From the UHGV virus genome UHGV-0396296: a stretch of DNA of 25,960 bases. One strand, 5' to 3'. Under the pieces are notes generated by a model that did not search any database, was not told the DNA's origin, and saw only the letters and a list, made by a program, of their open reading frames with translations. This document shows, one piece after another, positions 2,873 to 25,867 of the stretch (position 1 is its first letter; every line of letters starts with the position of its first letter). A program made the position numbers and the translations under genes. This DNA is from a virus.

Positions 2873-3153
2873 AGGTAGTTCCTCCCAAAAATTCTCATAA
2901 AGTCTTCTCTTGTTCCGTGAACTTTTTCAAACGCCTCTTGCCCTTTTTTATGAAGATATTCCATATTTTCTTTGTTGAAATGAACGCCGTTCGGAGGCTC
3001 ATTATGCCAATAATGATTTAAATAAACCCATAGTCCGTATTTTTCCGACAATTTTCTATTGGCTCCTTGGTATAGATGATGTTTTTCCAACCAGTCTGTT
3101 CTGCCGCTTAAATAGCATACCTTTTCAGACTGCATAATACTCTTTGCCATCAC
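2869..3153 (-). CDS. HNH-like nuclease-motif protein (94 aa)
   Basis: Motifs LEKHHL ... GLWVYLNHYWHNEP resemble the HNH beta-beta-alpha core (HH ... N ... H). The canonical Cys pairs are incomplete. Confidence 0.4.
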   Translation of the reverse strand: MMAKSIMQSEKVCYLSGRTDWLEKHHLYQGANRKLSEKYGLWVYLNHYWHNEPPNGVHFNKENMEYLHKKGQEAFEKVHGTREDFMRIFGRNYL

Positions 3154-3703
3154 CTAACACCTCATTTCTATACGTTATTGCACAATTAAGACTTTCAAAA
3201 GTTTTACATATTTCTAAGCTTTTGATGCATACACGGTACATTCCATTCTTTTGGCGGTGTATGTACTTTTCTCCAGTATTCGTTTTTTTACATTTTGTTT
3301 TTGGCTTGCGCATATGTTTTGCCGAATATTTAATATTCTTTGCCTGTGTTGTAATTTCTAAGTTAGAAGCTTTATTATTTAACGTGTCGTAATCAATATG
3401 GTTAATGACTTTATCTTGACCAACACACCCTAAAAACGCTTCTGCCACCAACCTGTGTACGTAGTGATTTTTTTTCACATATAATCCGTTATATTCACGC
3501 CTAAGCCCCACTATTTTATATCCATTTCCATTATCGGTCGGTGTTAATAACTGCCCCTTAATTCGCCTTTCCATGGATTTTCCCCACTGAGTGTTGTTTT
3601 GAGTTATAATTCTGTCAAGAGACCTAACGTTTCCCAAGTTGCTAACCTGATAAAGTCCTTCATATCCCAGTATATCTCGCCATTCTTCCTCAAGCCTTTT
3701 CAT
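3125..3703 (-). CDS. HNH homing endonuclease with NUMOD4-type N-terminal motif
   Basis: 192-aa ORF. WRDILGYEGLYQVSNLGNVRSL is a NUMOD4-like motif, and HRLVAEAFL...INHIDYDTLNN is HNH_3-like. The gene is visibly more AT-rich than its flanks and overlaps both neighbouring genes. Confidence 0.75.
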   Translation of the reverse strand: MKRLEEEWRDILGYEGLYQVSNLGNVRSLDRIITQNNTQWGKSMERRIKGQLLTPTDNGNGYKIVGLRREYNGLYVKKNHYVHRLVAEAFLGCVGQDKVINHIDYDTLNNKASNLEITTQAKNIKYSAKHMRKPKTKCKKTNTGEKYIHRQKNGMYRVCIKSLEICKTFESLNCAITYRNEVLGDGKEYYAV

Positions 3704-4319
3704 CTGCCTCTCCTTTCAAGTCTGCGTAAACCTCCTTGAATCGTTCCACTGTGGTGTCTTTGCCCAGTTTGTAGTCTTTGGACAGTTCAGATGCCTTTAT
3801 GCCCTTCTCGTTTGCCAGTTCCAGCACCTTGCCCCTCCAAATTTCACGCTCTTTTATATCACTTACAACCTCATCCCGGCTCTTTGCGGCGGCTTTCCGT
3901 CTATCCTCGACACTTCCATCAGCTTCGTCCGGCAAATCCTCCCCTGCGTACACATACAGCCCCAGTCCGTGCCTTGCAACAGCTTTTGTCAGGCTCCTTT
4001 GGATAGCTTTGTTCACGTCAAAGCTGGTTACCATGTCCGCTGGGATGGACTTGTTGCGATAGTCCATTACCGGCAAAAACTCTATATGTTCAATTTCGAA
4101 ATCGTCAGTTACAACAGTTACCCCCGTTTTTACCCAACACGTCTTATTGTCAGAAAAGTAGTTCCACTCCAGATCGTTTTGGTAGACGGTATAATAGCTT
4201 CTCGGGTATCGTTTTTTTAGTTCCTTCCAGGCGTTGGCCCACGACAAATACGATAAATCCTTCTTTTTCTCTATCATGCTCCCGCAGTCAACGCTGTTTA
4301 GTTCCTCAAAATAGTTCAT
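3690..4319 (-). CDS. Putative single-strand annealing protein (Rad52/Sak-like, DUF1071-type), uncertain
   Basis: 209-aa ORF with LSYLSWANAW and HGLGLYVYAGEDLP motifs and an acidic/charged C-terminal tail. Family assignment is from memory only. Confidence 0.4.
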   Translation of the reverse strand: MNYFEELNSVDCGSMIEKKKDLSYLSWANAWKELKKRYPRSYYTVYQNDLEWNYFSDNKTCWVKTGVTVVTDDFEIEHIEFLPVMDYRNKSIPADMVTSFDVNKAIQRSLTKAVARHGLGLYVYAGEDLPDEADGSVEDRRKAAAKSRDEVVSDIKEREIWRGKVLELANEKGIKASELSKDYKLGKDTTVERFKEVYADLKGEADEKA

Positions 4320-5055: not shown

Positions 5056-5439
5056 TCATCGTTTGTCCTCCTTTACCAGTTTTGCGTGGTTCCAGCATGT
5101 CGTGTCGCCGTTGGTACTCCAGCTTGTCTTTCCGTAATCCCACGTAAACACTTCCCCGTCTTCAAATTTCGCAAAATGTCTCGGCCACCACTCCCCACAT
5201 TCGAAATCTCTAACATATATCGGCGTATCCACAGGCACCTTGCTCCAGTCGACTTTTGGCTCTGCGTCAGCTTTGGCTCGTAACCATTTGAGTCGTGCGA
5301 CAGTACAATCAGAGCCGGTGCTATCGTCAAGAGTGCAATCATTACAGCCACGAAGGCCGCACGGGCGTAAGCTATCTCCGAAAAGCCCCCAAGGCGACGC
5401 GGCCAAAATCTCATCCAAATATTTCTCTCTATTCGTCAT
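5056..5439 (-). CDS. Hypothetical Cys-rich phage protein (127 aa)
   Basis: ORF with a GGAGAG RBS. Cys cluster CGLRGCNDC. No family recognised. Confidence 0.45.
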   Translation of the reverse strand: MTNREKYLDEILAASPWGLFGDSLRPCGLRGCNDCTLDDSTGSDCTVARLKWLRAKADAEPKVDWSKVPVDTPIYVRDFECGEWWPRHFAKFEDGEVFTWDYGKTSWSTNGDTTCWNHAKLVKEDKR

Positions 5440-5615
5440 GCCGACTCTCCTTTCTGCATCTGCCTCTCGATGTACAACTTTATCTCCTCATCGGTAAAAA
5501 ACACCTGCGATCCCACATTGAATCCCTTGATCTCTCCCCTTTTCCGCAGCCTCCACAACGTAGTCTTGCTAATTCGCAGAAGCTCCGCAGTCTCTGTCTG
5601 TGTTAATACCTGCAT
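5436..5615 (-). CDS. Excisionase-like / MerR-type HTH_17 DNA-binding protein (59 aa)
   Basis: Start chosen at ATG 5615 (MQVLTQTETAELLRISKTTLWRLRKRGEI) because it follows an AGGAGG RBS. The ORF track start at 5648 lacks an RBS. Confidence 0.55.
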   Translation of the reverse strand: MQVLTQTETAELLRISKTTLWRLRKRGEIKGFNVGSQVFFTDEEIKLYIERQMQKGESA

Positions 5616-5629
5616 AGTGTCCTCCTTTC

Positions 5630-5658
5630 TTGTCCCGCCCGACCACATATGATAAAAT
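5630..5658 (+). promoter_or_regulatory. Candidate sigma70-type promoter for the DUF4145 gene (TTGTCC-N17-TAAAAT)
   Basis: Hexamers read directly, 17-nt spacer, 25 nt upstream of ATG 5684. Diverges from the Xis-like gene. Confidence 0.35.
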
Positions 5659-5683: not shown

Positions 5684-6346
5684 ATGACCGGATTCAAATG
5701 TCCATATTGTAATTCTGTTTTTCCTTTGACCAGAGATACTCTCCGAGAATGCAAGGCCTATTTCGATCCGCCTAAACCTTACGAAGCTGCTGACAACAGC
5801 GGCATAAATATTTCATTCTACAAATGCCCAAATTGCAACGAATATATAGTGCGTGCTCAAGGCTTTGGTAAACAGGTTCTTGATATAAATTCACAACTGC
5901 GCCCGCTATCTTCCGCAATACAATTCCCTGATTATGTTCCGGAGTCCATACGACAGGACTATAGCGAAGCCTGCGCTATCGTTAATCTCAGTCCTAAAGC
6001 ATCCGCCACTTTATCTCGCAGGTGTCTACAAACTATGATTCGCGACTTCTGGGGCATTACCGAAGCAACGCTTTACAAGGAAATCGAAAGTCTCGACACT
6101 ATTATTCCTTCTACACAGAAAAAAGTACTTCATAGCCTTAGACAAATCGGCAATATCGGTGCCCACCCTGAAGCTGATATCAACACAATCATTGATATCG
6201 AACCCGGCGACGCTGAAAAGCTCATTAAGGTTATCGAGTTCTTTGTTGATAAGTGGTACATCGATCGCCATGAGCAACAGCTTCTGTTTGATGAGATCAA
6301 TAATCTCAACGATGATATGCAGGATAAAAAGAAATCTGATGAGTAG
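5684..6346 (+). CDS. Zinc-ribbon plus DUF4145-domain protein (candidate defence or accessory gene)
   Basis: 220-aa ORF on the opposite strand to the surrounding early operon. N-terminal CPYC...CPNC pairs. C-terminal LHSLRQIGNIGAHPE and SRRCLQTMIRDF match recalled DUF4145 features (lR..GN.gaH). Confidence 0.6.
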   Translation: MTGFKCPYCNSVFPLTRDTLRECKAYFDPPKPYEAADNSGINISFYKCPNCNEYIVRAQGFGKQVLDINSQLRPLSSAIQFPDYVPESIRQDYSEACAIVNLSPKASATLSRRCLQTMIRDFWGITEATLYKEIESLDTIIPSTQKKVLHSLRQIGNIGAHPEADINTIIDIEPGDAEKLIKVIEFFVDKWYIDRHEQQLLFDEINNLNDDMQDKKKSDE

Positions 6347-6617: not shown

Positions 6618-6821
6618 TCATTGACGAGCAAAAAAAATTTCTTCTACTGACGTACCGTAATATTCTGCAAGTCTTATTTTAATTTCATCACGCGGCACTC
6701 TTTCGCCATTTTCATACATTGACAATGCCGATGGGCTTATACCTGTTGCTCTTGCTACTTCCTCCTGGCTTTTGGCGCCTCGAAGTTTTACAAGTCTTTC
6801 GGATATTACGCTCTTGTCCAT
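6618..6821 (-). CDS. Cro-like XRE-family HTH regulator
   Basis: 67-aa ORF. SQEEVARATGISPSALSMYENGERVP is a canonical XRE HTH. Transcribed divergently from the CI-like gene, towards the replication genes. Confidence 0.7.
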   Translation of the reverse strand: MDKSVISERLVKLRGAKSQEEVARATGISPSALSMYENGERVPRDEIKIRLAEYYGTSVEEIFFARQ

Positions 6822-6847: not shown

Positions 6848-6925
6848 ATTATATCATTCGCCACAAATCGTGTCAACACATTTTGTGGACTTTTTCTTTA
6901 CTTTTTCCACGAATCGTGTTATTAT
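6848..6925. promoter_or_regulatory. Divergent switch region: consensus leftward promoter (TTGACA-N17-TATAAT on minus), weaker rightward promoter, and three operator-like sites
   Basis: Minus strand -35 at 6871-6876 and -10 at 6848-6853 with a 17-nt spacer. Direct repeats CCACAAATCGTGT (6861-6873) and CCACGAATCGTGT (6907-6919), plus inverted partner ACACATTTTGTGG (6876-6888). Confidence 0.5.
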
Positions 6926-6954: not shown

Positions 6955-7266
6955 ATGTCAAAGTTTTCAACGGTTTTTAAAAATTTAAGAATCAATAACG
7001 GATACACGCAACAGGAGCTTGCTAATAGACTTGGCGTTTCACGCAGTGCCGTTGGTATGTATGAAAATGGTGAGCGTGAGCCTGATTTTGAAACGTTAGA
7101 GGCAATAGCTGATTTCTTTAATGTGGACATGGACTATTTAATGGGTAGGAGTAATAAAATCACAACTATCGCCGCCCACCATGAAGGCGAAGAATGGACA
7201 CAGGAAGAACTTGATGAGATAGAAGAGTTTAAGAAATTTGTGAAATCAAAAAGAGATAATAAGTAG
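6955..7266 (+). CDS. CI-like XRE-family HTH repressor
   Basis: ATG 6955 preceded by GGAGGG. YTQQELANRLGVSRSAVGMYENGEREP is an XRE HTH. Followed by an ImmA-like gene. The track ORF start at 6772 is upstream of the promoter region. Confidence 0.7.
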   Translation: MSKFSTVFKNLRINNGYTQQELANRLGVSRSAVGMYENGEREPDFETLEAIADFFNVDMDYLMGRSNKITTIAAHHEGEEWTQEELDEIEEFKKFVKSKRDNK

Positions 7267-7320
7267 TGTCCATACTTTTGGACACTGGGGTCGATATAAT
7301 ACTTTTGGGGAGGTGTTACC

Positions 7321-7704
7321 GTGACGAAGTACGAAGAACTTATGGCAAGATACGACAATCTCCACATCGAGGAACGACCCATGAAAAATGATGGTCTGTA
7401 CGCTGATGATTGTATCTGGATCAATAGGAACATGCCGGAATGCCGCCGGTATTGCACGCTTGCAGAAGAGATCGGACACTATGAGACCAGCGTTGGAGAT
7501 ATATTGGATCAGACCAATACGAATAACCGCCGGCAGGAGCGAGCTGCCCGCAAGTGGGCATACGAGGAAATACTGCCAGTCGAAAATATATTATTCGCCG
7601 CTCAGGATGGACACACTGATATATGGGACATGGCAGAATACTTAGAAGTAGACGAAGCATTTCTAAAGGATGCTTTAAGGCATTATGGGATTTTAGACAT
7701 ATAA
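7321..7704 (+). CDS. ImmA/IrrE-family (M78-like) metallopeptidase homologue with non-canonical EEIGH motif
   Basis: 127-aa ORF, GTG start after GGGGAGG. Pattern IWINRNM...RRYCTLAEEIGHYE...WAYEEILPVE matches ImmA family architecture, but the first His of HExxH is Glu. Confidence 0.6.
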   Translation: MTKYEELMARYDNLHIEERPMKNDGLYADDCIWINRNMPECRRYCTLAEEIGHYETSVGDILDQTNTNNRRQERAARKWAYEEILPVENILFAAQDGHTDIWDMAEYLEVDEAFLKDALRHYGILDI

Positions 7705-8595: not shown

Positions 8596-9501
8596 ATGGA
8601 TCAAAAACCATACAAAACAATTGATGAACAAGTTGAAATTTTAAAAGACCGCGGGTTAATCATAAGTGATGAGGATTATGCAAAACGGTGTCTTACTCAA
8701 CTCAATTATTATCGTTTAAGTGGCTATACTTTGACATTACGAAAAAATAATAGCTTTTACAAAAACATAACTTTTGAAAACGTAATGGATATATATAACT
8801 TTGATCGTCAACTTAAACTTTATGTGTTAAATTATCTTGAAGACATCGAAATATCGTTGCGTACTCACATAGGTTATATTTTAGGAAGCATGGATTCAGA
8901 CAAACCAGCGTATCTTAATGCTGGTTGCTATATAAGCGATGCTCATTACAACAGAGTCCTTGAAGAACTGAAGGATGCCCTTGCTGACAGTAAAAATGAA
9001 GCCTTTGTAAAGCACCACCAGACAAAATACCGCGGAAGCCTTCCTTCATGGGTAATGGTCGAAACATTATCGTTCGGAGCGCTTTCAAGACTCTTTTCAT
9101 CGCTTAAGCAAGACATAAAATGTGACATCTGTGATGCTTATTATAACCAAATCCGCCCACAAGTTGTTGAAAATCTTCTAGAAGGTTTAGTTGTTCTTCG
9201 TAATATATGCGCTCATCATTCCCGCATATATAATCGAGGCATCCCAAACACACCTAAGATGTCTAAAGTAGATAATGATTTTTTTATAGATAATGGATAT
9301 GAGCGAAATGAAATAGGAAAAAAATTATTCTTCAGACTCGTAATCATAGACCGATTGATAGAGGATGCTAATTTTTTAAGCAAAATGATATCTGATATAG
9401 ATGCATTGTCTTATAAATATCCTTTTGTTCAACTCAGGCATTATGGTTTTAAAGCAGACTGGAAAAACATGGTTTCAGAAATTAATAAACAATATAAATA
9501 A
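8596..9501 (+). CDS. Abortive infection protein, Abi_2 family (AbiD/AbiF-like)
   Basis: 301-aa ORF. KTIDEQVEILKDRGL, LNYYRLSGYTLTLR, HHQ...LPSWVMVETLSFGALSRLF and LRNICAHHSRIYNRG match recalled hallmarks of Abi_2 proteins. The gene and its upstream region are markedly AT-rich. Confidence 0.8.
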   Translation: MDQKPYKTIDEQVEILKDRGLIISDEDYAKRCLTQLNYYRLSGYTLTLRKNNSFYKNITFENVMDIYNFDRQLKLYVLNYLEDIEISLRTHIGYILGSMDSDKPAYLNAGCYISDAHYNRVLEELKDALADSKNEAFVKHHQTKYRGSLPSWVMVETLSFGALSRLFSSLKQDIKCDICDAYYNQIRPQVVENLLEGLVVLRNICAHHSRIYNRGIPNTPKMSKVDNDFFIDNGYERNEIGKKLFFRLVIIDRLIEDANFLSKMISDIDALSYKYPFVQLRHYGFKADWKNMVSEINKQYK

Positions 9502-9692: not shown

Positions 9693-10877
9693 ATGCCAGG
9701 AACGAAACAGAAACGAGGAACAGACAGCTGGACCCTGCACGTCAGAGCCGGCACTGATTTTAGGGGAAAGCCCATAAGATATACCAAAACAGTACACTGC
9801 AAAAGCGAAGCAGCTGCAGACAGGGAACTCGCCCTGTTTTATGCAGATTGCGTAAACGGCCGGGTCAACAGATCTACACCTATAACAGTAGCAGAGCTTG
9901 CCGACCAGTGGTATGAAGAGTACGTACTGCGGCACTTAAAGGTCAGCGCCCGGCGTGGCATAGATCCCGCCATAAAGATGTGGATAAAGCCACTACTTGG
10001 AAATAAGAAGGTTTCTAAAGTACAGCGCCTCGATGTGCAAAAATGGGTAAATTACGTTTCCGATCCGCAGGAGCGTACGAACAAGAGGGGCGAAAAAGTT
10101 ATAAAGCAGCTCTCCCCTAAGACTGTACGAAATTACTACTCTGCGCTTCGCGGTATGTTTGATTTTGCGGTCGATATGGGGATCATCGAGGACACTCCCT
10201 GTAAAAATATCCGTATGCCGAAAAAGGATCATAAAGAGGCCACCTACTTTTCTATAGAGGAAGTAAATGTCCTTCTAGAAGCCCTGAGCGCCTTACAGAG
10301 CGACGAACTGCGCTACAAGGTAGCGATTTACCTCGGGCTGTTTGGCGGCCTCAGGAAAGGTGAAATAATGGGATTAAACAGAGAGGATATTAACTTTGAG
10401 CGAGGCGAAATAGCAATCCGGCGTACAAGGATGATAAAACCGAAGGAAGGCGTCTACGAAGACACGCCCAAGACGGATAAATCCATAAGGACGGTCGCCC
10501 TACCTCCGGAGGTTATGGCAGAGATCCTGTGCCTGATCGCGCAACAAAAGGAGCAGAAACTGCAGCTTCAGAACCAGTACCATGACTCCCCTGCCCTGCT
10601 CCGTAACGACCACGGGGACCCACTGTACCCGCAGGTGCTGCAGAGGTGGTTTACCCGATTCCTGGAGAAAAATGGCTTACCTCACGCTGGCCTGCATTCT
10701 CTAAGACACACACACGCCTCAATGCTCGTATATCTTGGTACGGATAAAATGCAGGTCAGCTCCAGACTGGGTCACTCTCAGCTATCGACTACGCTAAATA
10801 TTTACACGCACTTATTTGAAAACGCCGACAAAAAAATAGCGGAAGATCTGTCATCGAACTTCCTAAAAGCTCGCTAG
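9693..10877 (+). CDS. int: Tyrosine site-specific integrase (phage integrase family)
   Basis: 394-aa ORF. C-terminal catalytic signature LFGGLRKGE...HSLRHTHASMLV...LGHSQLSTTLNIYTHL (R, H-x-x-R, Y). N-terminal SAM-like region. Confidence 0.9.
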   Translation: MPGTKQKRGTDSWTLHVRAGTDFRGKPIRYTKTVHCKSEAAADRELALFYADCVNGRVNRSTPITVAELADQWYEEYVLRHLKVSARRGIDPAIKMWIKPLLGNKKVSKVQRLDVQKWVNYVSDPQERTNKRGEKVIKQLSPKTVRNYYSALRGMFDFAVDMGIIEDTPCKNIRMPKKDHKEATYFSIEEVNVLLEALSALQSDELRYKVAIYLGLFGGLRKGEIMGLNREDINFERGEIAIRRTRMIKPKEGVYEDTPKTDKSIRTVALPPEVMAEILCLIAQQKEQKLQLQNQYHDSPALLRNDHGDPLYPQVLQRWFTRFLEKNGLPHAGLHSLRHTHASMLVYLGTDKMQVSSRLGHSQLSTTLNIYTHLFENADKKIAEDLSSNFLKAR

Positions 10878-11100
10878 TTGTTGTCATCATTGTTGTCATT
10901 TTGGCGAAATATGCCGAAATGTTGCGAAACGCGTTGAACGCTCAAAGCATTGAAATTTAAACGATTTGAATGATTTTGAAAATCGCCGAAATACCCTCAG
11001 AACCGATTCGAGTCCCGTGTCCTCCGCCAGCGAAGCCCTGTAATTCCAACGGTTGCAGGGCTTTTCATTTCCGTTTGTTGTCATTTTGTTGTCAATTTGA
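10877..11100. other. Candidate attP region: flanking direct repeats TTGTTGTCATTTTG, CGAAAT/TTGAA short repeats, and a tRNA-3'-end-like core
   Basis: Direct repeats at 10877-10904 and 11074-11099. Sequence TTCGAGTCCCGTGTCCTCCGCCA (11007-11029) resembles a T-loop, acceptor 3' strand and CCA. Integrase and lysis genes converge here. Confidence 0.35.
11034..11065 (+). terminator. Hairpin plus T-run (AGCCCTG...CAGGGCT TTTT) downstream of int
   Basis: 7-bp GC-rich stem followed by TTTT, read directly. Confidence 0.4.
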
Positions 11101-11140
11101 TTTTTACTGTTATTGCAATCGAAAAAACAATTCTGTATAA

Positions 11141-11172
11141 TAAAAAAAGAGCGGTGGCAAGTCCGCCCTCTT
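11141..11172 (-). terminator. Intrinsic terminator after the small minus-strand ORF
   Basis: Minus strand reads AGAGGGCGG-loop-CCGCTCT followed by TTTTTTT. Confidence 0.45.
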
Positions 11173-11189
11173 ATGTGTGTGCCTGTCGA

Positions 11190-11333
11190 TTATTCGGCAG
11201 GTTTTTCCTTTTTTGCCATCTCCCTAACGTCTTCGATAGCCTTCTTTACTTCGTCCATATCCTTACAGGCTGCGAATTTATCGGCTACCAAATTAAGTAT
11301 CACTTCCATCTGCTTATCCGTCATATTCTCCAC
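11190..11333 (-). CDS. Small hypothetical protein (about 47 aa; ...MTDKQMEVILNLVADKFAACKDMDEVKKAIEDVREMAKKEKPAE)
   Basis: Hand-translated. Below the ORF track length cutoff. AAGGAGG RBS 5 nt before in-frame GTG 11333 (ATG at 11324). Followed by a terminator. Confidence 0.35.
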   Translation of the reverse strand: MENMTDKQMEVILNLVADKFAACKDMDEVKKAIEDVREMAKKEKPAE

Positions 11334-11393
11334 AGCGCCCTCCTTTCTCCGCTTGCCCGGTTATTACCGTCCGGTTTCCCTTTCGGTAATTAT

Positions 11394-11422
11394 AATATAC
11401 ACTATTTTTTATATTTTGTCAA
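11394..11422 (-). promoter_or_regulatory. Near-consensus promoter (TTGACA-N17-TATATT) for the small ORF
   Basis: Read on the minus strand. Spacer is similar to those of the two promoters at 11707-11805. Confidence 0.4.
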
Positions 11423-11464
11423 TGTGTTTTTATATATTATTTTATATTTTTTATACTTTTTCGT

Positions 11465-11683
11465 TTATATTATAGGCTCGCCCGTTTCTTTGTCGATGAA
11501 TTGTATTCTCAGCTCTGCGTCGAATGCCTCCGCAATTTTTTCCAATTCAGACACCTTAAACGTGTTCCGTTTGTATTTATTGTTTAAATTCTGCGGCGTT
11601 TGTCCTGTACGCCGAGCAAGTTCCGCTTCCGACATATTTCCTCTTTTAACCCTACACAGATTTATATATTCTCTGACATTCAT
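11465..11683 (-). CDS. XRE-family HTH regulator (72 aa)
   Basis: MSEAELARRTGQTPQNLNNKYKRNTF is an HTH. GGAGGT RBS 6 nt before the ATG. Confidence 0.6.
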   Translation of the reverse strand: MNVREYINLCRVKRGNMSEAELARRTGQTPQNLNNKYKRNTFKVSELEKIAEAFDAELRIQFIDKETGEPII

Positions 11684-11706
11684 ATGCTGACCTCCTTCCT
11701 CTTTTG

Positions 11707-11735
11707 ATTATACACTATATTTTATAATATGTCAA
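11707..11735 (-). promoter_or_regulatory. Consensus promoter TTGACA-N17-TATAAT driving the HTH gene
   Basis: Minus strand -35 at 11730-11735 and -10 at 11707-11712. Confidence 0.5.
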
Positions 11736-11776
11736 AAAAAGAATTTAAATAATATAAAATATTTTATAAAAAACCG

Positions 11777-11805
11777 TTGACAGAATATAAAATTACGTGT
11801 ATAAT
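11777..11805 (+). promoter_or_regulatory. Consensus promoter TTGACA-N17-TATAAT driving the small acidic ORF
   Basis: Plus strand -35 at 11777-11782 and -10 at 11800-11805. Divergent from the promoter at 11707-11735. Confidence 0.5.
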
Positions 11806-11928
11806 ATAATCACAAGGTGAGATAAGGAGGCAATACCATCTCAGTAATGCACTGGGAACAGGTGCAAAAAGAGTTGACACTATAAATAATATATGGGATA
11901 TTGTAAAAAACAAGAGGAGGATAAAAAA

Positions 11929-12162
11929 ATGAAAAAGATGTTTTTAGAAAGTAACGGCTATAACATGATAGGTTTTATATTCGAAGATAATAAAATGGTG
12001 GCATTCGATTGCGAAACATTAGAAGACGCAAAGAATATGGACTGCTCGGGCGTGGAAGGCTGCAAGAGCGCAGAAGAAGCCGCTGTGGACTGCGATACCG
12101 AAGTTTATCCGTTTATTGAAGATGAGTGGGAAAACGTTACATTTATAGAGGAAATGGAATAG
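11929..12162 (+). CDS. Small acidic Cys-containing protein (77 aa), hypothetical
   Basis: ATG 11929 lies 8 nt after GAGGAGG. The track start at 11893 has no RBS. Protein is rich in D/E. Confidence 0.5.
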   Translation: MKKMFLESNGYNMIGFIFEDNKMVAFDCETLEDAKNMDCSGVEGCKSAEEAAVDCDTEVYPFIEDEWENVTFIEEME

Positions 12163-12203
12163 CATAAAAAATCCCCGGCCTTCGCCGGGGACGCTCTATT
12201 TTA
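12163..12203. terminator. Bidirectional terminator (CCCCGGC-CTTC-GCCGGGG hairpin with A-run upstream and T-rich downstream)
   Basis: Read directly, between convergent genes. Confidence 0.55.
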
Positions 12204-12543
12204 TATATCCATCTTTGCCCACATAGTAGGGATTCCATTTTGTGCGAACCTTTACAATGGGTAATTCTTTGCATTTTTCATATATCTCTGTCCCTGTTCC
12301 GTTTCCACCAAGTCCGTGATAGCCCTGGTAGATTTCTGTAAGGGTTTCCATTTCTTCAAACGTTATTTGATCGGTTTCGATATAGAATTGGCCGTATCTG
12401 AACAGACGATCATGCCCGTTCGCCCGAACGGCTATTGTCAAGGCCCTAAATCGTCGTATCACCCATGCCAGGGTGCCAGCCGCAAAACTGGCAACCCCCG
12501 CACAAAATATCTCTATCCAATTTTCCAGTATACTTTCCCACAT
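12196..12543 (-). CDS. Membrane protein appended to the lysis cassette (N-terminal TM helix), function unknown
   Basis: ORF directly follows the endolysin stop. Hydrophobic segment WIEIFCAGVASFAAGTLAWVI. Start is either GTG 12552 or ATG 12543. Confidence 0.45.
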   Translation of the reverse strand: MWESILENWIEIFCAGVASFAAGTLAWVIRRFRALTIAVRANGHDRLFRYGQFYIETDQITFEEMETLTEIYQGYHGLGGNGTGTEIYEKCKELPIVKVRTKWNPYYVGKDGYIK

Positions 12544-12552
12544 AGGCGACAC

Positions 12553-13296
12553 CTACACATTTATATGTACAGCATTACCCATACCCGTAGTATTGGCATA
12601 TGAATAGGCAGCGCCCAGATCGTATGCCTTGGCTACTACCTGTTTCCTTCCGTCCGCTGTATCACAGATGCCAGGAATGTAGATGTCGGCAGCCCTGCCC
12701 TTCATGTGGGTGGAATTAGATGCCCCACCTACCTGTTTGTTTCTCGTGGCACATCTCTGTCCAGATGTAATAGTTATTGGTTTCCCATAATATGCACGCA
12801 GATTTTCCAGCAGATTGAGCAGCTTAGATGACGTATCTCCCGCCGGATATCCGTTGCAATATTTACCGCCACACCCGCACTTGAACTCTGATTTTGCAAA
12901 ATGCGCCGAAGAACCGCCGGAAGCTGTGCCGGCAGAACCGGAAGAACCGGAACCGCTGCGCAGCGCAGCCCACGTTGCCTGTCCAGCGCATCCGTCGGCT
13001 GTCAGGCCCAGCTTTTTCTGTACGGTCTTTATAGCTGCTGCCGTCTTCTGCCCCAGAACGCCATCGACGGTCAGCCCCGCGCCGTATTTATTTAACAGCG
13101 TCTGCAACTCCTTCGTTACCGATACAGCCTTCGCATCTGTCTTAGCTCCCCAAATGCCATCTACCGACAGGCCATAGCCATTTTGGAATTTCTTTGTAGC
13201 CGCCTTTGTCTGGGCGCCCTCTATGCCATCCAGTGCGCCTGTATAATAACCATAGTTATATTTTAGAAAATACTGTCTGTATAAAACCGATATCAT
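12553..13296 (-). CDS. Endolysin: two peptidoglycan-binding repeats plus C-terminal peptidase M15 (D-Ala-D-Ala carboxypeptidase-like) domain
   Basis: Start ATG 13296 overlaps the holin stop and follows a GGAGA RBS. PG_binding-like repeats, GSGSSGSAG linker, and SGQRCATRNKQVGGASNSTHMKGRAADIYI...NAVHINV. The track ORF extends upstream in-frame but overlaps the holin. Confidence 0.8.
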   Translation of the reverse strand: MISVLYRQYFLKYNYGYYTGALDGIEGAQTKAATKKFQNGYGLSVDGIWGAKTDAKAVSVTKELQTLLNKYGAGLTVDGVLGQKTAAAIKTVQKKLGLTADGCAGQATWAALRSGSGSSGSAGTASGGSSAHFAKSEFKCGCGGKYCNGYPAGDTSSKLLNLLENLRAYYGKPITITSGQRCATRNKQVGGASNSTHMKGRAADIYIPGICDTADGRKQVVAKAYDLGAAYSYANTTGMGNAVHINV

Positions 13297-13514
13297 TACT
13301 CTACGTCTCCTTCCTGCAATTCCGGCAGGCTGACAATACTGTTCAACAGACTCAGCACGCCGGACAGTATCGACGCCGATACTACCATTTTCCAATCCAC
13401 CGCCGCAAATACCGCAGCCGTTCCTATAGTTGCGATGGCCGTCTGCGCTACCGTGCGGATAGCACGCATACCGGCCTTCTTTATCCACGTCTTAAATTTC
13501 TCCATGTCGTTCAC
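13296..13514 (-). CDS. Holin (small two-TM protein)
   Basis: 72 aa with two hydrophobic segments (AIRTVAQTAIATIGTAAVFAAV and MVVSASILSGVLSLLNSIV) and a charged C-terminus. Immediately upstream of the endolysin. Confidence 0.7.
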   Translation of the reverse strand: MNDMEKFKTWIKKAGMRAIRTVAQTAIATIGTAAVFAAVDWKMVVSASILSGVLSLLNSIVSLPELQEGDVE

Positions 13515-19143: not shown

Positions 19144-21732
19144 TCAGCTCCTCTCAAATCCTAATTTGCCGATATATCTTGCCATATTCCTGTCGTTAGG
19201 CACCATTCTTATCTGGCTTACACCTCGTTCAAGGCCGCCTGCTATTTGCGCTCCCTGTGCTGTAACTGCTTCGACGATGTACGCCCCCAAGGCATACACA
19301 TCTAACGGTTCAGCCGCCGAATTTGCTCTTGCAGACTCCTTGGCATATTTCACGCTTATATCGTGCGGTATTACCTGGGACCCGTTAGGCAGGTTAACCA
19401 GCTCTCCTCGGCCGCCCTCATTCATTACCGCAAAACCTCCTTGCCAGTTATCTGTACCGTGCGCCAGGTAAGGTATTGTTCCAATGCTTACTCCGGGAAT
19501 CTTGTTTATAAGCCCGATAGCCGCGTTAATTCCGCCAATTACATTGTTTATGAACCCTTTTACCGTATTAACTAAGCGTTGCACAGCCCCAGCAATACCA
19601 GAAAATACACCTGATACAAACGATGTAAGCCCATTCCATGCGGATTTTATGGCATTAAATACATTTACAATAAAACTACGTACTCTCCCCATTACAGATG
19701 ATACGGTGCTATAGATCTTATTGAAAACGCTTACTACCGTATTGATTATCGAAGCTATCGTACTGATAATCTGGCCGACAACGTTTGCGATAAACGATAT
19801 TATCGGTGTTACTATCTGTATTATCGTATTGATTACATTCGCCACAATACTGACTATCGTTGTTATCGCTGGCATTATATACGTTGTTATTATATTTCCG
19901 ATAGTTGTCAATATTGGAGCCAGGGCGCTCACCAATTGCGATATAACGGGTGCGAGCGTCGTTGCTATTTGAGTGATAACCGGTGCAAGCTGCGATACAA
20001 GCGTCGTTATGAGCGGCGCAAGCGTCTGGACAACCTGCCCGATGGCTTGAGCAACCACTATCAGTATCTGGGCAAACGAACCTGCGAGAAGTGTTATTAT
20101 AGGCGTTACTGCTGGCACTAGCTGGGCAAATGCGCTCGCCAATTGCTGTATCGCTGGCATTATAGCTTGTACAACCTCCGTAATAAGTGTGGATAGCGAT
20201 TGGAGAACAGGCTCAAATGATGCTTTTATCTGTTCCCACGATGATATCATGCTGTTTTTAAATTCATCGTTTGTATTCCACAGATACACGATAGCCGCTG
20301 CCAATGCTGCGAATACCGCGATGGCCGGCAAGAAGGGCGCTATCGCTGCTTTCATCGCTCCACCCATCGCTAAAAGCGACGTGCCGGCGCTTTTAGCTGT
20401 AGCTGCGAGTGATGTACCAAACCCCGATATAGTCGTCCCCAGCCCTGAGAATGTTGTGCCGAGGCCAGAGAAGCTCTTAGCGAGATTCCCTTTCAGGCCA
20501 CTTGCTGCCGTGGACACTCTTTTGAAGTTATTCTGCGCGCTCGTTGCGAAATTGGCTATCTTTTGCTGTTCAACGGTCAACGGACCAGCCATACCATTAA
20601 ACGCAGCTCGTACAGTCTGGATATCACCAACAAAGCTCGTTACGGCCGCCCCTGCACTTTTTATGGTGTTGAATGTTTTTACCATCTTTCCGACGCCCGT
20701 GGTTATACTTCCGATTATTTTCAACGCAGGCCCCAAGCTTACTAAAAAAACAGCCCCGAAGGCTGTCACTTTTAAGATTGCCGATTGTAGCCAGTCAGGT
20801 AGCGCCTGAAAACTCGCTATGAATGACTTCACATTGTCTACCATGTTCGCAAATGCTTCGCCGAATTTAACCCCGAGCTCGCTTGCCTTCGCTTCTATTG
20901 TCCCCAGGTTCTCGTTAAACTCCGCCATAAGCGGCTTAAGCTGTGAAAAGAATCCGCCGCCTTTGCCGCCGGCATCAAGGAAGTTTGCTCCGATCCGAGC
21001 AAGAGAAGCTCCGATATTGTCAACAGCTGCGGTAAATGACGTTTCACCCATTATCTGGGCAGCCCCACCTATATTCTTGTTTATGGCATTAAACAACATC
21101 TCTGAGGATATTTTGCCCTCTGACGCAAGAGCCTTTACCTCTGAGGCCGCCACGCCAGCTTCTTCAGCCAGCCACTGATATACCGGCAATCCTCTGTCTG
21201 CGAATTGTTCGAGGTCTTCTGTGTATACAGTTTGCCCCGTTTGAACACGGTTAAGGATTGACCCCATCTCTGACATAGACACTCCCGCTATAGCTGCGGC
21301 GTCGGCGGTCATTTCGAGATATTTTGTCAACTCCTGCCCTGGCTTTATTCCCGCTGCCACAGCATTTGCCGCCACAGTCGCCGCCTCGTCAAGCCCGAAG
21401 GCTGTCCCCTGTACGGAGGTTAGGGCTGAATCCATTATCTTTTCCACACTTTCAGCGTCGTGCCCGAGTGCCTGGAGCTTAGACCTGGCTGTATCTATAC
21501 CTACAAGCCTGTCGAAACCTTTCACGAGTGTTATGCCGGCAAGTGCGCTGGTGGCAGCTACAGCAGGTTTTGTGATCTTGCTTGTCAAACTGTTCCCTAC
21601 ATTCGATATCTTACTGCCAATGTTGGCCATTCGCTTTTCAAATGCTGTTACAGAATTTTGTGCTATCTGGAATGCCTTTTCAAAACTGCTGGCGTTTCCC
21701 GTTATCTTCGCAGACAATACATAATCAGCCAT
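19144..21732 (-). CDS. Tail tape measure protein
   Basis: 862-aa ORF, Ala/Gly/Ile-rich with repetitive helical and hydrophobic segments. Follows the chaperone G/GT pair. Confidence 0.9.
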   Translation of the reverse strand: MADYVLSAKITGNASSFEKAFQIAQNSVTAFEKRMANIGSKISNVGNSLTSKITKPAVAATSALAGITLVKGFDRLVGIDTARSKLQALGHDAESVEKIMDSALTSVQGTAFGLDEAATVAANAVAAGIKPGQELTKYLEMTADAAAIAGVSMSEMGSILNRVQTGQTVYTEDLEQFADRGLPVYQWLAEEAGVAASEVKALASEGKISSEMLFNAINKNIGGAAQIMGETSFTAAVDNIGASLARIGANFLDAGGKGGGFFSQLKPLMAEFNENLGTIEAKASELGVKFGEAFANMVDNVKSFIASFQALPDWLQSAILKVTAFGAVFLVSLGPALKIIGSITTGVGKMVKTFNTIKSAGAAVTSFVGDIQTVRAAFNGMAGPLTVEQQKIANFATSAQNNFKRVSTAASGLKGNLAKSFSGLGTTFSGLGTTISGFGTSLAATAKSAGTSLLAMGGAMKAAIAPFLPAIAVFAALAAAIVYLWNTNDEFKNSMISSWEQIKASFEPVLQSLSTLITEVVQAIMPAIQQLASAFAQLVPAVTPIITLLAGSFAQILIVVAQAIGQVVQTLAPLITTLVSQLAPVITQIATTLAPVISQLVSALAPILTTIGNIITTYIMPAITTIVSIVANVINTIIQIVTPIISFIANVVGQIISTIASIINTVVSVFNKIYSTVSSVMGRVRSFIVNVFNAIKSAWNGLTSFVSGVFSGIAGAVQRLVNTVKGFINNVIGGINAAIGLINKIPGVSIGTIPYLAHGTDNWQGGFAVMNEGGRGELVNLPNGSQVIPHDISVKYAKESARANSAAEPLDVYALGAYIVEAVTAQGAQIAGGLERGVSQIRMVPNDRNMARYIGKLGFERS

Positions 21733-22465: not shown

Positions 22466-23242
22466 CTATGCCATCGCCGTAACTGTCGCGGTTCCTGCCT
22501 TTACGGCATTGCCGCTGCTGTCACATTCGATTATCATTATCTCGTTTCCGGTAGTAGCTGCTATTTCGTCAGTCCCGTTCCATGTTGTTCCTGGCGCCGT
22601 GGTTCCATATGTCGGCCAGTCAAGCGGCGCTTCGCCTGTCACGTATTTATAACTATTGCCACCTGTAAGAGATGGATTAACATATATAGCCGTTTCACCG
22701 GACGACGTACCCGCCACAGACACAACAGTTAACGTGCCAAGGGCTGCCGTACCTTCCGGCATAGTATCCGGCGTTACCGGATTCACAAGCAGGTCCACGA
22801 GTGCTCCCATACCGGAAAGCGTTATAGAATAGGTCATACTGTCATCGTATGGCGCCTCTATCGGGTAATCCGTTATAACAGCAAGGCCTCCAAACATTCC
22901 TACCTTGGTCTTTCCGTTCACGACCTTAATGCACACAGGATCGCCGTTTTCAAACGCTGTGGAAAGAATACCGTGGCTCTGGTCATTAGGTACGTAAAGG
23001 CCGTCATTGTCGATGGACCATTCCTTCATGCCTGCCAGATACGACTTCCAGCCGCCCTCTGTATCTTTAGACGTTATTTCGATGGTATCCGCCGACCTGT
23101 TTATGGTCAGCCCCTGCTGTCCACTAATAGCCAAAAGCTCGTCTCCTGTCGTATTAAACACGCACAGGAGTATATCTTTACCAGCAACGGCCTTGGCTAC
23201 CGAGCTGGTAAAATCGCAATAGTTATTGTTGTCAAAAGCCAT
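22466..23242 (-). CDS. Major tail protein with C-terminal Ig-like domain
   Basis: 258-aa ORF upstream of the chaperones. C-terminal Thr/Gly/Ser-rich beta-strand-like region. Confidence 0.75.
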   Translation of the reverse strand: MAFDNNNYCDFTSSVAKAVAGKDILLCVFNTTGDELLAISGQQGLTINRSADTIEITSKDTEGGWKSYLAGMKEWSIDNDGLYVPNDQSHGILSTAFENGDPVCIKVVNGKTKVGMFGGLAVITDYPIEAPYDDSMTYSITLSGMGALVDLLVNPVTPDTMPEGTAALGTLTVVSVAGTSSGETAIYVNPSLTGGNSYKYVTGEAPLDWPTYGTTAPGTTWNGTDEIAATTGNEIMIIECDSSGNAVKAGTATVTAMA

Positions 23243-24697: not shown

Positions 24698-25867
24698 TTA
24701 CTGGCCGTCGTTGACTACTACAGCCGCAGAGCCAGAGCCTACAGCCTTAAACCACTGGTCGGCCTCGACTACCGTGATATACTGTCCTGCCGTGGCTTCA
24801 ATGTCAGCGCTCTGTGTGAATACCGACCAATTTCTCACGTTTTCGCCATATTCAACAGGTATCGCCGCCGCTCCAAGCTTATACTTCAGCACATTGCCCG
24901 CAGTTCCAACTGTGCCGGAAAGCGTCGCCTTTGTAGTGCCCTCAACAGAGCCTTCTGCCGGTGTTACCGTTATAGTCTTCAGTTCCGGAGCGTCCGTAAT
25001 GGTGATTACCGCTACCGCGTTCAGATATTCCGCGAATATCGTCAGACCCATAATTGCGTAGGACTCGGACTGCGCTCTCTGGTACACGCCCTCCGTATGG
25101 AATCCGATATACGGAACGTCAGGGTCAGTCGTGTATGCCAGTCCTGCCTGTGCAAATCCGGAATCGGCAGGATCAACGTAGTAAACATTGAGATTGTTTA
25201 CCGGCGTTGCAATCACTCTGCCCTGTGGAACCTCGGAGGAGAAGAAGAGAATGTCCGCTCCGAGGAAGTCCTCCACGTAATCCATACCGAAAGCCGTCTG
25301 GACTGTTATCTGGGCGCCTCCAAGGTATCCATATACATCGAGCGTATTTGCAAATACCGCGACCCCTATGGCTCTTCTGTGCATCTTCTTAAATGCGTCC
25401 TTGACTCTGCCTATTGCCATCGCTATTGCCATCTGGAAAGTAGCCTCTTCCGATGTAAGCTGTCCCGTCAGCAGGAAATTATAAAACTGCGCCAGTACAT
25501 CGTCCTGAAGCTGTACCTTAAATTCTTCGTCAGTCATTCCGACCGCCGTTTCAAGTCCGTACTTTTCGATAGCTTCGATAGTTACAGCCTTTCTGTACTT
25601 CAAAAGTTCGATAGGCTGAAAATCTACAGGCTCAACCTCAAACTGCGAAAGCGGAATCAGATCGCCTTCTGCCACCGAGCCGCTCTGAAGTTCGCCCGTT
25701 GCTCGCTTTGCTGTCAGCATAGTACCGTTTGCTTTCCTTATCGGTCTGGATATGCCCATAACCTCGGTCAGAGCTGTTATTTCCCTGCCGAAAGATGTTA
25801 CAAAATCAACCTCTCTCGGGTTGATGCTAAACTGCTGTGTAGTTATAGTGTTTGGAATTGCTGCCAT
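24698..25867 (-). CDS. Major capsid protein with C-terminal Ig-like domain
   Basis: 389-aa ORF, AGGAGG RBS 9 nt upstream, placed before the connector genes. C-terminal TITVTPAEGSVEGTTKATLSG is Ig-like. Confidence 0.65.
   Translation of the reverse strand: MAAIPNTITTQQFSINPREVDFVTSFGREITALTEVMGISRPIRKANGTMLTAKRATGELQSGSVAEGDLIPLSQFEVEPVDFQPIELLKYRKAVTIEAIEKYGLETAVGMTDEEFKVQLQDDVLAQFYNFLLTGQLTSEEATFQMAIAMAIGRVKDAFKKMHRRAIGVAVFANTLDVYGYLGGAQITVQTAFGMDYVEDFLGADILFFSSEVPQGRVIATPVNNLNVYYVDPADSGFAQAGLAYTTDPDVPYIGFHTEGVYQRAQSESYAIMGLTIFAEYLNAVAVITITDAPELKTITVTPAEGSVEGTTKATLSGTVGTAGNVLKYKLGAAAIPVEYGENVRNWSVFTQSADIEATAGQYITVVEADQWFKAVGSGSAAVVVNDGQ

Follow-up and report, generated by a model that had tools for sequence, protein, structure and literature searches.

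The gene at 7321-7704 (plus strand) of the viral genome UHGV-0396296 was analyzed within the whole stretch of 25,960 nucleotides (nt), referred to here as the window. It encodes a Peptidase M78 (ImmA/IrrE family) protein of 127 amino acids (aa) in which the zinc-binding motif HExxH is replaced by EEIGH. The protein adds one more ordinary member to the MpaR-type anti-repressor clade, a very large group of M78 proteins from Bacillota phages and prophages for which EExxH is normal. We consider it likely that the protein is a metalloprotease anti-repressor of the MpaR type, cutting the CI-like repressor encoded directly upstream between A74 and H75 (A74/H75) to induce the phage. Homology to MpaR, motif register, clade conservation, synteny, substrate-motif pairing and fold were observed here; cleavage and its site are carried over, by analogy, from published work on MpaR and staphylococcal ImmA.

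Motif register and predicted fold

7321..7704, plus strand: M78 (ImmA/IrrE family) predicted metalloprotease anti-repressor, MpaR-type, 127 aa, GTG start
7309..7313, plus strand: Shine-Dalgarno sequence GGAGG, read from the sequence, 7 nt ahead of the GTG start
7465..7479, plus strand: EEIGH motif, E49-H53, placed by alignment register, conservation and synonymous codon use
7537..7539, plus strand: E73, the Glu of KQExxAR, presumed third metal ligand (gluzincin-type), invariant in a 62-sequence alignment and located on helix 67-84

Residues 46-55 (nt 7456-7485) read TLAEEIGHYE. E49 (GAA, 7465-7467) stands where the first zinc-ligand His would be, E50 (7468-7470) at the catalytic Glu position, and H53 (7477-7479) at that of the second His ligand. 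Pfam PF06114 (Peptidase_M78) matched residues 22-116 with 47 bits (gathering cut-off 22, E 2.8e-12), and the PHROG 87 'metallo-protease' profile matched at E 2.5e-31. By profile the protein belongs to Peptidase M78; by motif (E49-E50-I-G-H53) it lacks HExxH. No PADLOC model matched it, capP included, and NCBIfam profiles returned nothing meaningful.

The motif was aligned to Rir of TP-J34 with MAFFT, which set LAEEIGH opposite LLHELGH. A profile of the clade (62 sequences) was compared with a Rir-family profile by hhalign, and CTLAEEIGHYETS was placed opposite KVLLHELGHLEHD (probability 89.7%, E 1.8e-6), the profile-level alignment being limited to the N-terminal half, residues 13-57. An AlphaFold2 (AF2) model of the protein (predicted local distance difference test score, pLDDT, 97; predicted template modeling score, pTM, 0.89) had strands at 15-19, 25-28 and 31-35, a helix at 40-56 bearing E49, E50 and H53, and a next long helix at 67-84 bearing E73; this is the three-stranded sheet plus helices of the IrrE-like metallopeptidase fold. 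The top Foldseek matches to the model in the PDB were PprI/IrrE (8sln, 3dte, 8slm and 3dti; query-normalized TM 0.66-0.70). Queried by sequence, with the protein alone or with the 62-sequence profile, the PDB yielded no relative, the sole match being a spurious repeat to DC-SIGNR, so that the kinship with IrrE/PprI was recovered by the fold search only. By position, E73, on the helix that follows the motif helix, corresponds to the downstream Glu of gluzincins. Read from these alignments, E49 probably replaces the first His, with E49, H53 and E73 holding the metal and E50 serving as general base.

An earlier note on this DNA had placed the protein after a CI-like repressor, in the ImmA/IrrE family and with Glu at the first zinc-ligand His, and had proposed that the register be confirmed by alignment. 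All of this held: an XRE repressor (6955-7266) lies directly upstream, both profiles and the IrrE/PprI fold agree on the family, and three register checks, including that against LLHELGH of Rir, agree on the motif. A shifted motif was ruled out, as HExxH is absent from the whole protein, which holds four His only (15, 53, 97 and 121). A one-off mutation or sequencing error was likewise ruled out as the source of the Glu, which is clade-wide; because the change from GAA to a His codon (CAY) takes two base changes, a single-base error is excluded as the cause of E49.

Conservation of EExxH and homology to MpaR

All of the 120 nearest homologs (61-98% identity) read [TVIM]LAEE[ILV]GH. An exhaustive HMMER search over 1.84 billion cluster representatives returned 969 clusters (50% identity) with E < 1e-3, and EExxH was present in 148 of the 150 best representatives out of these 969, the exceptions being one VExxH and one EKxxH; chance would not account for so frequent a Glu. 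Motif frequency (Glu vs. His) was taken from this pattern-free search only. Because the patterns behind the IMG/VR and genome scans for relatives themselves included EE..H, these scans cannot gauge that frequency, and they were used only for partner repressors.

In the 62-sequence alignment (31-61% identity), H53 and E73 were invariant and L7, G25, L47, E49, E50, G59 and I61 were at least 90% conserved. Over 80 related loci E49 was encoded by GAA in 47 and by GAG in 33; because both Glu codons occur, E49 is held by selection while its codon drifts. Another residue standing in for the lost His was looked for at position 54, which is His or Tyr but variable, and at position 60, which is Asp or Asn in about half each, and both were rejected as replacement ligands because their conservation was too low. 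The motif type was also found in cultured phages: Clostridioides phiCD27 gp43 (AEELGH), Listeria LP-HM00113468 gp33 (LP-HM gp33; AEEVGH), Listeria A118 gp35 (IEEAMH), Staphylococcus EW ORF025 (LEELAH), and Staphylococcus phiMR11 orf3 and 3MRA (FEELAH). The predicted E/H/E ligand set is conserved throughout the EExxH clade and is not a defect.

MpaR, encoded in the monocin locus of Listeria monocytogenes, is a DUF955/M78 protein described as a 'metalloprotease anti-repressor', and its predicted metal-binding site was published as EELMH (Argov et al. 2019, PMC6872733). The H54A substitution (EELMA) abolishes phage induction and the in vivo cleavage of two CI-like repressors, and the cut in the phi10403S repressor was located by liquid chromatography-tandem mass spectrometry at A74/H75 of the conserved TIAAHIDxxxxEExxxxILAYIE, i.e., TIAA/HID (PMC6872733). 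RecA acts upstream of MpaR in Listeria (PMC9043618). In the monocin regulatory region of a Listeria record (L170), the M78 open reading frame (ORF) reads VLVEELMHYKYT and the repressor ahead of it VTIAAHIDDDVTEEEMRDILAYIE; its VEELMH agrees with the published EELMH and H54. The protein at 7321-7704 was 36% identical to this ORF over 123 residues (BLASTP, E 2e-27), and tblastn in the phage collection gave a match at E 8e-17. Like MpaR, to which it is homologous, this protein has EExxH and is encoded immediately after a short CI-like XRE repressor within a lysis-lysogeny switch.

The earlier note had offered two readings of the altered motif. Its 'unusual ligand set' would, on the alignments, be a fair description of the whole EExxH clade rather than of this phage alone. 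Its other reading, a special altered paralog that binds but does not cleave and makes prophage induction unusual, was not borne out: EExxH is normal among the nearest homologs, the best representatives and the cultured phages, the clade holds MpaR with its published H54-dependent repressor cleavage in vivo, and the staphylococcal FEELAH ImmA counteracts ImmR immunity. Rir, the single family member for which binding without cleavage is reported, has a canonical HELGH.

The presumed substrate

6955..7266, plus strand: CI-like XRE-family repressor, presumed substrate, 103 aa, HTH_3 match at 8.9e-21
7165..7185, plus strand: TIAAHHE motif, T71-E77, with the predicted scissile bond A74/H75 between nt 7176 and 7177

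The repressor reads TTIAAHHEG at the predicted site, its tail being TTIAAHHEGEEWTQEELDEIEEFKKFV (in a longer reading, ...RSNKITTIAAHHEGEEWTQEELDEIEEFKKFVKSKRDNK), and it contains the published cleavage motif, TIAAH and then an acidic helix. It was 32% identical to the Listeria monocin CI-like repressor with AAH aligned, and A74/H75 carries the same numbering in the phi10403S repressor. In an AF2 model of the repressor (pLDDT 79.7), the helices of the helix-turn-helix (HTH) lay within 4-62 and a C-terminal helix at 83-101, and residues 73-78 (AAHHEG), with pLDDT < 50, formed a linker ahead of that helix. The low-confidence linker and C-terminal helix fit an exposed cleavage site whose cutting would sever the DNA-binding domain from an oligomerization helix. 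A Pfam scan found no peptidase domain in the repressor. The PADLOC model of CapH, a repressor cut by CapP and associated with the anti-phage signaling system that is based on cyclic oligonucleotides (CBASS), matched 6955-7263 over its full length (E 8.1e-15).

AAH was present in 106/120 nearest homologs of the repressor and was at least 90% conserved in repressor homologs; 13 of the 120 had the same HTH and a different, longer tail. On contigs L223-L226, two different-tail repressors (P0510 and P0508) had an HTH nearly as in the window repressor and a longer tail without AAH. They were followed by small unknown ORFs and then by a serine recombinase (L223-L225) or unrelated DUF genes (L226), and no M78 gene was found after either repressor in the contigs examined. 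From these sequences the repressor tail appears to act as an exchangeable module that sets the route of induction. A 76-aa repressor variant, P0410 (99% identical, on 2 contigs), ends in ...KITTIAAPP*, a truncation at the predicted cleavage site. One additional C within the run GCCGCCCACC would yield it exactly; the variant either mimics the cleaved product in nature or stems from a sequencing error.

Pairing of protease type and repressor tail

In 67/80 IMG/VR loci the ORF immediately preceding the EExxH gene carried an AAH tail. In eleven of the other 13 a same-strand A-[A/S]-H acidic tail lay no more than 1.5 kb away, and of the remaining two one was cut by the contig end and one was without such a tail. 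An EExxH gene with an A-[A/S]-H acidic-tail repressor upstream was therefore present in 78/79 assessable loci, these and the other pairing counts being of loci related by descent and not of independent events. The N-terminal parts of the partner repressors were very diverse, and the common part was the module of AAH plus acidic helix. Both exceptions to the motif, VExxH and EKxxH, were still paired with AAH partners.

As an HExxH control, the Rir lineage (7 streptococcal/enterococcal phages and 60 IMG/VR loci) was used with the published ImmR, DdrO and CapH sites; this control covers a single broad lineage together with cases from the literature. The partners of Rir-like HExxH proteins had no AAH-type tail in the 7 diverse phages and in 60/80 IMG/VR loci, the 60 being those with both the M78 ORF and the upstream ORF callable. 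A tail [M/L/F]FDGxPLx[DE][DE]D was found in the seven HExxH phages and in Crh-like IMG/VR tails (φFDGxPL). AAH-type and Crh-type tails align in one frame (..IAAHHDGEDWTEEE.. over ..NAMMFDGKPLTDDD..), in which the P1' His of the EExxH partners stands opposite Met, Leu or Phe of the HExxH partners. The HExxH-partner repressor of the Streptococcus phage Javan565 (L172) contains AAH (REAAAHTMLFDGRPL) upstream of MLFDG and out of register, so a plain text search for AAH would misclassify it. Two repressor-M78 modules lay 40 kb apart (L179 and L180) on contig CAMNSS010000011.1, from a metagenome-assembled genome of an uncultured Eubacterium; both M78 proteins shared 75% identity with the window protein, and the two repressor tails did not differ. 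This duplication could reflect tandem or related prophages or an assembly artifact.

That the Glu-for-His swap in the enzyme is functionally coupled to the invariant P1' His of the substrate is a tentative idea, and a rather unlikely one. In one possible form the imidazole of substrate His75 would complete or tune the E49/H53/E73 site, as substrate-assisted metal coordination; in another, also possible, E49 would read out the His, leaving the protease inert except toward its cognate linker. Relatedly, a carboxylate-rich E/H/E site may favor Mn(II) or Fe(II) rather than Zn(II); if so, induction would be linked to metal or redox status.

Proposed mechanism and alternatives

6848..6876, minus strand: perfect sigma-70 promoter TTGACA-17-TGnTATAAT (12/12 matches), for the cro-like and leftward early genes
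6897..6925, plus strand: weaker promoter TTTACT-17-TATTAT (9/12 matches, TG extension), for the repressor-M78-Ltp operon
6861..6919, no strand assigned: three operator-like 13-mers over both promoters, CCAC[A/G]AATCGTGT at 6861-6873 and 6907-6919, with an inverted copy at 6876-6888
6618..6821, minus strand: Cro-like HTH protein of 67 aa, encoded divergently from the repressor, HTH_3 match at 4.9e-14

The switch region is 133 bp long and holds both promoters and the three operator-like 13-mers. In the lysogen, the 103-aa XRE repressor would be expressed from the operon that it shares with the protease and would occupy the three 13-mers, silencing the strong leftward promoter. Upon an induction signal, which in Listeria is RecA-dependent and in this host may be comparable, the 127-aa protease would cleave the repressor at A74/H75 within the flexible TIAAHHE linker. 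The HTH DNA-binding domain would thereby be parted from the C-terminal helix (83-101), which is presumably needed for oligomerization, repression would be lost, and the cro-like and early genes would be switched on.

Several points weigh against this reading. Cleavage of a repressor by an EExxH member has not been published with purified components, the MpaR paper being without in vitro reconstitution, and direct catalysis by the EExxH site is suggested by analogy. The clade is without a solved structure in the PDB sequence searches described above, and metal binding by E49 is read solely from its position and conservation. The window protein belongs to a subclade of 127-129 aa that is without the C-terminal extension of about 25 residues found in MpaR, A118 gp35 and the staphylococcal proteins, and the representative with Val at position 49 keeps an AAH partner. 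Finally, Rir binds Crh with no cleavage detected in vitro (PMC6868357, PMC12828697). This last result, the similar size of Rir, its identical repressor-M78-ltp synteny and the unpublished state of in vitro proteolysis for any EExxH member would suit a non-catalytic anti-repressor, in which the Glu marks a lost metal site and stoichiometric binding of monomeric repressor blocks oligomerization and DNA binding. We regard this as unlikely. Rir retains HELGH, so its non-cleavage is not tied to loss of the first His; E50, H53 and E73 are as strictly conserved in the EExxH clade as in active enzymes; MpaR, with EELMH, gives a defined, H54-dependent product at A74/H75; and the partner tails hold an invariant A-A-H at exactly the MpaR cut site.

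The published evidence for cleavage by EExxH proteins all comes from in vivo work in Listeria cells, and the N-terminal domains of S. aureus CI were reported as ClpXP substrates (PMC12628705); both would be compatible with a co-protease or adaptor role, in which the M78 protein delivers the AAH linker to a protease of the host or promotes self-cleavage by the repressor. This is quite improbable given that the fold and the conserved E50/H53/E73 match those of a gluzincin active site, that mutation of H54, the predicted metal ligand, abolishes cleavage, and that the repressor has no peptidase domain. It is highly improbable that the protein is the toxin of a COG2856/XRE type II toxin-antitoxin (TA) pair unrelated to the lysis-lysogeny decision. 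A homolog is annotated 'toxin' or 'toxin-antitoxin system' in the records of phages SAP11, 3MRA, DW2 and Wanderer, and COG2856-XRE pairs were predicted as TA systems (PMC2701414). The gene pair, however, sits within a textbook genetic switch that comprises a cro-like gene, divergent promoters and operator repeats in three copies, and an integrase lies downstream; MpaR and ASZ22RN ImmA were shown to be anti-repressors; and the authors of the MpaR study expressly dismissed the earlier TA prediction (PMC6872733).

Phage context

7265..7286, no strand assigned: 8-bp inverted repeat AGTGTCCA-N6-TGGACACT, set between the repressor and M78 genes and reaching into the repressor stop codon
7783..8262, plus strand: Ltp-type superinfection-exclusion lipoprotein with two Ltp repeats (PF07553 at 6.4e-31), directly downstream of the M78 gene in the same operon
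8596-9501, plus strand: AbiD (PADLOC AbiD/Abi_2 1.1e-84; Pfam 2.6e-51)
5684-6346: zinc-ribbon plus DUF4145 protein (PD-T7-4 match 1.7e-18)
9693-10877, plus strand: tyrosine integrase
5436-5648, minus strand: Xis-like HTH_17 protein
3690-4319, minus strand: Sak annealing protein
3125-3703, minus strand: HNH endonuclease
12553-13488, minus strand: endolysin
19144-21732, minus strand: tape measure protein
22466-23242, minus strand: tail tube protein

The inverted repeat at 7265-7286 is perfect, lies 35 nt ahead of the M78 start and has no T-run after it on the plus strand; candidate roles are in RNA stability or processing, in control of translation, or as a palindrome bound by a protein. The order repressor-M78-ltp is the same as in TP-J34, although the M78 subclades differ (EExxH vs. 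HExxH). AbiD and the DUF4145 protein are likely defense cargo flanking the switch. A C-terminal S-layer SbsC-like (Ig-like) domain was found on the tail tube protein and on a 389-aa protein near the window end (24698-25867), and may be a decoration or adhesion module shared by both.

The window is the genome of a temperate siphovirus. On the far side of the integrase lie an unknown 197-aa ORF (11097-11690) and then the endolysin on the opposite strand, with no host genes. Because the integrase adjoins phage genes, the window resembles the excised arrangement (that of the phage attachment site, attP) or a viral contig and not an integrated prophage, and attP is expected somewhere from about 10880 to 12550. 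The nearest genomic relatives were from Eubacterium, Anaerovoracaceae, Lachnospiraceae and Ihubacter, with more distant ones from Paenibacillus, Sporosarcina and others, and the host is best explained as a gut Clostridia lineage (Eubacterium/Anaerovoracaceae-like).

Implications

For UHGV-0396296 the analysis gives a concrete induction model, in which an adjacent 127-aa protease would cut a 103-aa repressor at A74/H75. More widely, EExxH is a conserved hallmark of Bacillota phage anti-repressors (at least 969 clusters at 50% identity) and not a degenerate site. The clade is recognizable from its sequence together with the substrate tag, an A-A-H linker and then an acidic helix, which is a gain for annotation, many members being labeled 'toxin' or 'hypothetical'. 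It becomes predictable which prophages take this induction route, as does cross-talk of co-resident prophages with a common AAH tag, as in Listeria. Gluzincin-like metal chemistry at an E/H/E site and the pairing of enzyme Glu with substrate His are the biochemical questions that the clade raises. Mildly new are the generalization across Bacillota phages and the apparent enzyme-Glu/substrate-His coupling.

Comparison with known systems

ImmA/ImmR (ICEBs1), IrrE/DdrO (Deinococcus) and CapP/CapH (CBASS) each pair an M78 metalloprotease with an XRE repressor, as here. ImmR, DdrO and CapH are cut near or within the C-terminal oligomerization region (published sites F95/M96, L106/R107 and F82/R83, respectively), the same logic as at the predicted site of the window repressor. 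ImmA, IrrE and CapP carry HExxH, unlike the window protein, the published zinc ligands of CapP being H96, H100 and E129; IrrE and CapP differ further in their extra HTH-like and GAF domains and in stimulation by single-stranded DNA.

Rir of TP-J34 (Streptococcus thermophilus) is similar in length (122 aa), belongs to the M78 fold family, and lies in an operon of identical order (repressor, M78, ltp). The tails of Crh and the window repressor are homologous, with a common DG...T[DE][DE][DE]...I frame. Rir differs in its canonical HELGH, and Crh has AMMFDGKPL where the window repressor has IAAHHEGEE. Non-cleaving Rir keeps HELGH, and loss of the first His is therefore not linked with loss of cleavage. 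With EEIGH and a partner tail of the AAH type rather than the MFDG type, the window protein falls outside the Rir type, the operon order alone being common.

Staphylococcal phages ASZ22RN, 3MRA and phiMR11 carry ImmA/ImmR modules. The immA gene of ASZ22RN cancels ImmR-mediated immunity (PMC12323379), and its product, with FEELAH, was identical to the 3MRA protein. These modules share the EExxH type, a partner repressor with RAAHLEGELTDDE, and the order repressor, M78, downstream genes, integrase; their ImmA differs from the window protein in identity (about 31%), in its length of 153-156 aa with the C-terminal extension, and in Ala-His rather than Gly-His within the motif. MpaR differs in host (Listeria vs. 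a gut Clostridia lineage) and in length, the window protein having 127 aa vs. 153 aa for MpaR, as read here, and 163 aa for A118 gp35. The sites are EELMH and EEIGH, the T-x-G-[DN]-I and KQExxAR motifs are present in both proteins, each gene immediately follows that of a short CI-like XRE repressor, and the partner of MpaR has the TIAAH, acidic helix, basic end and A74/H75 numbering of the window repressor.

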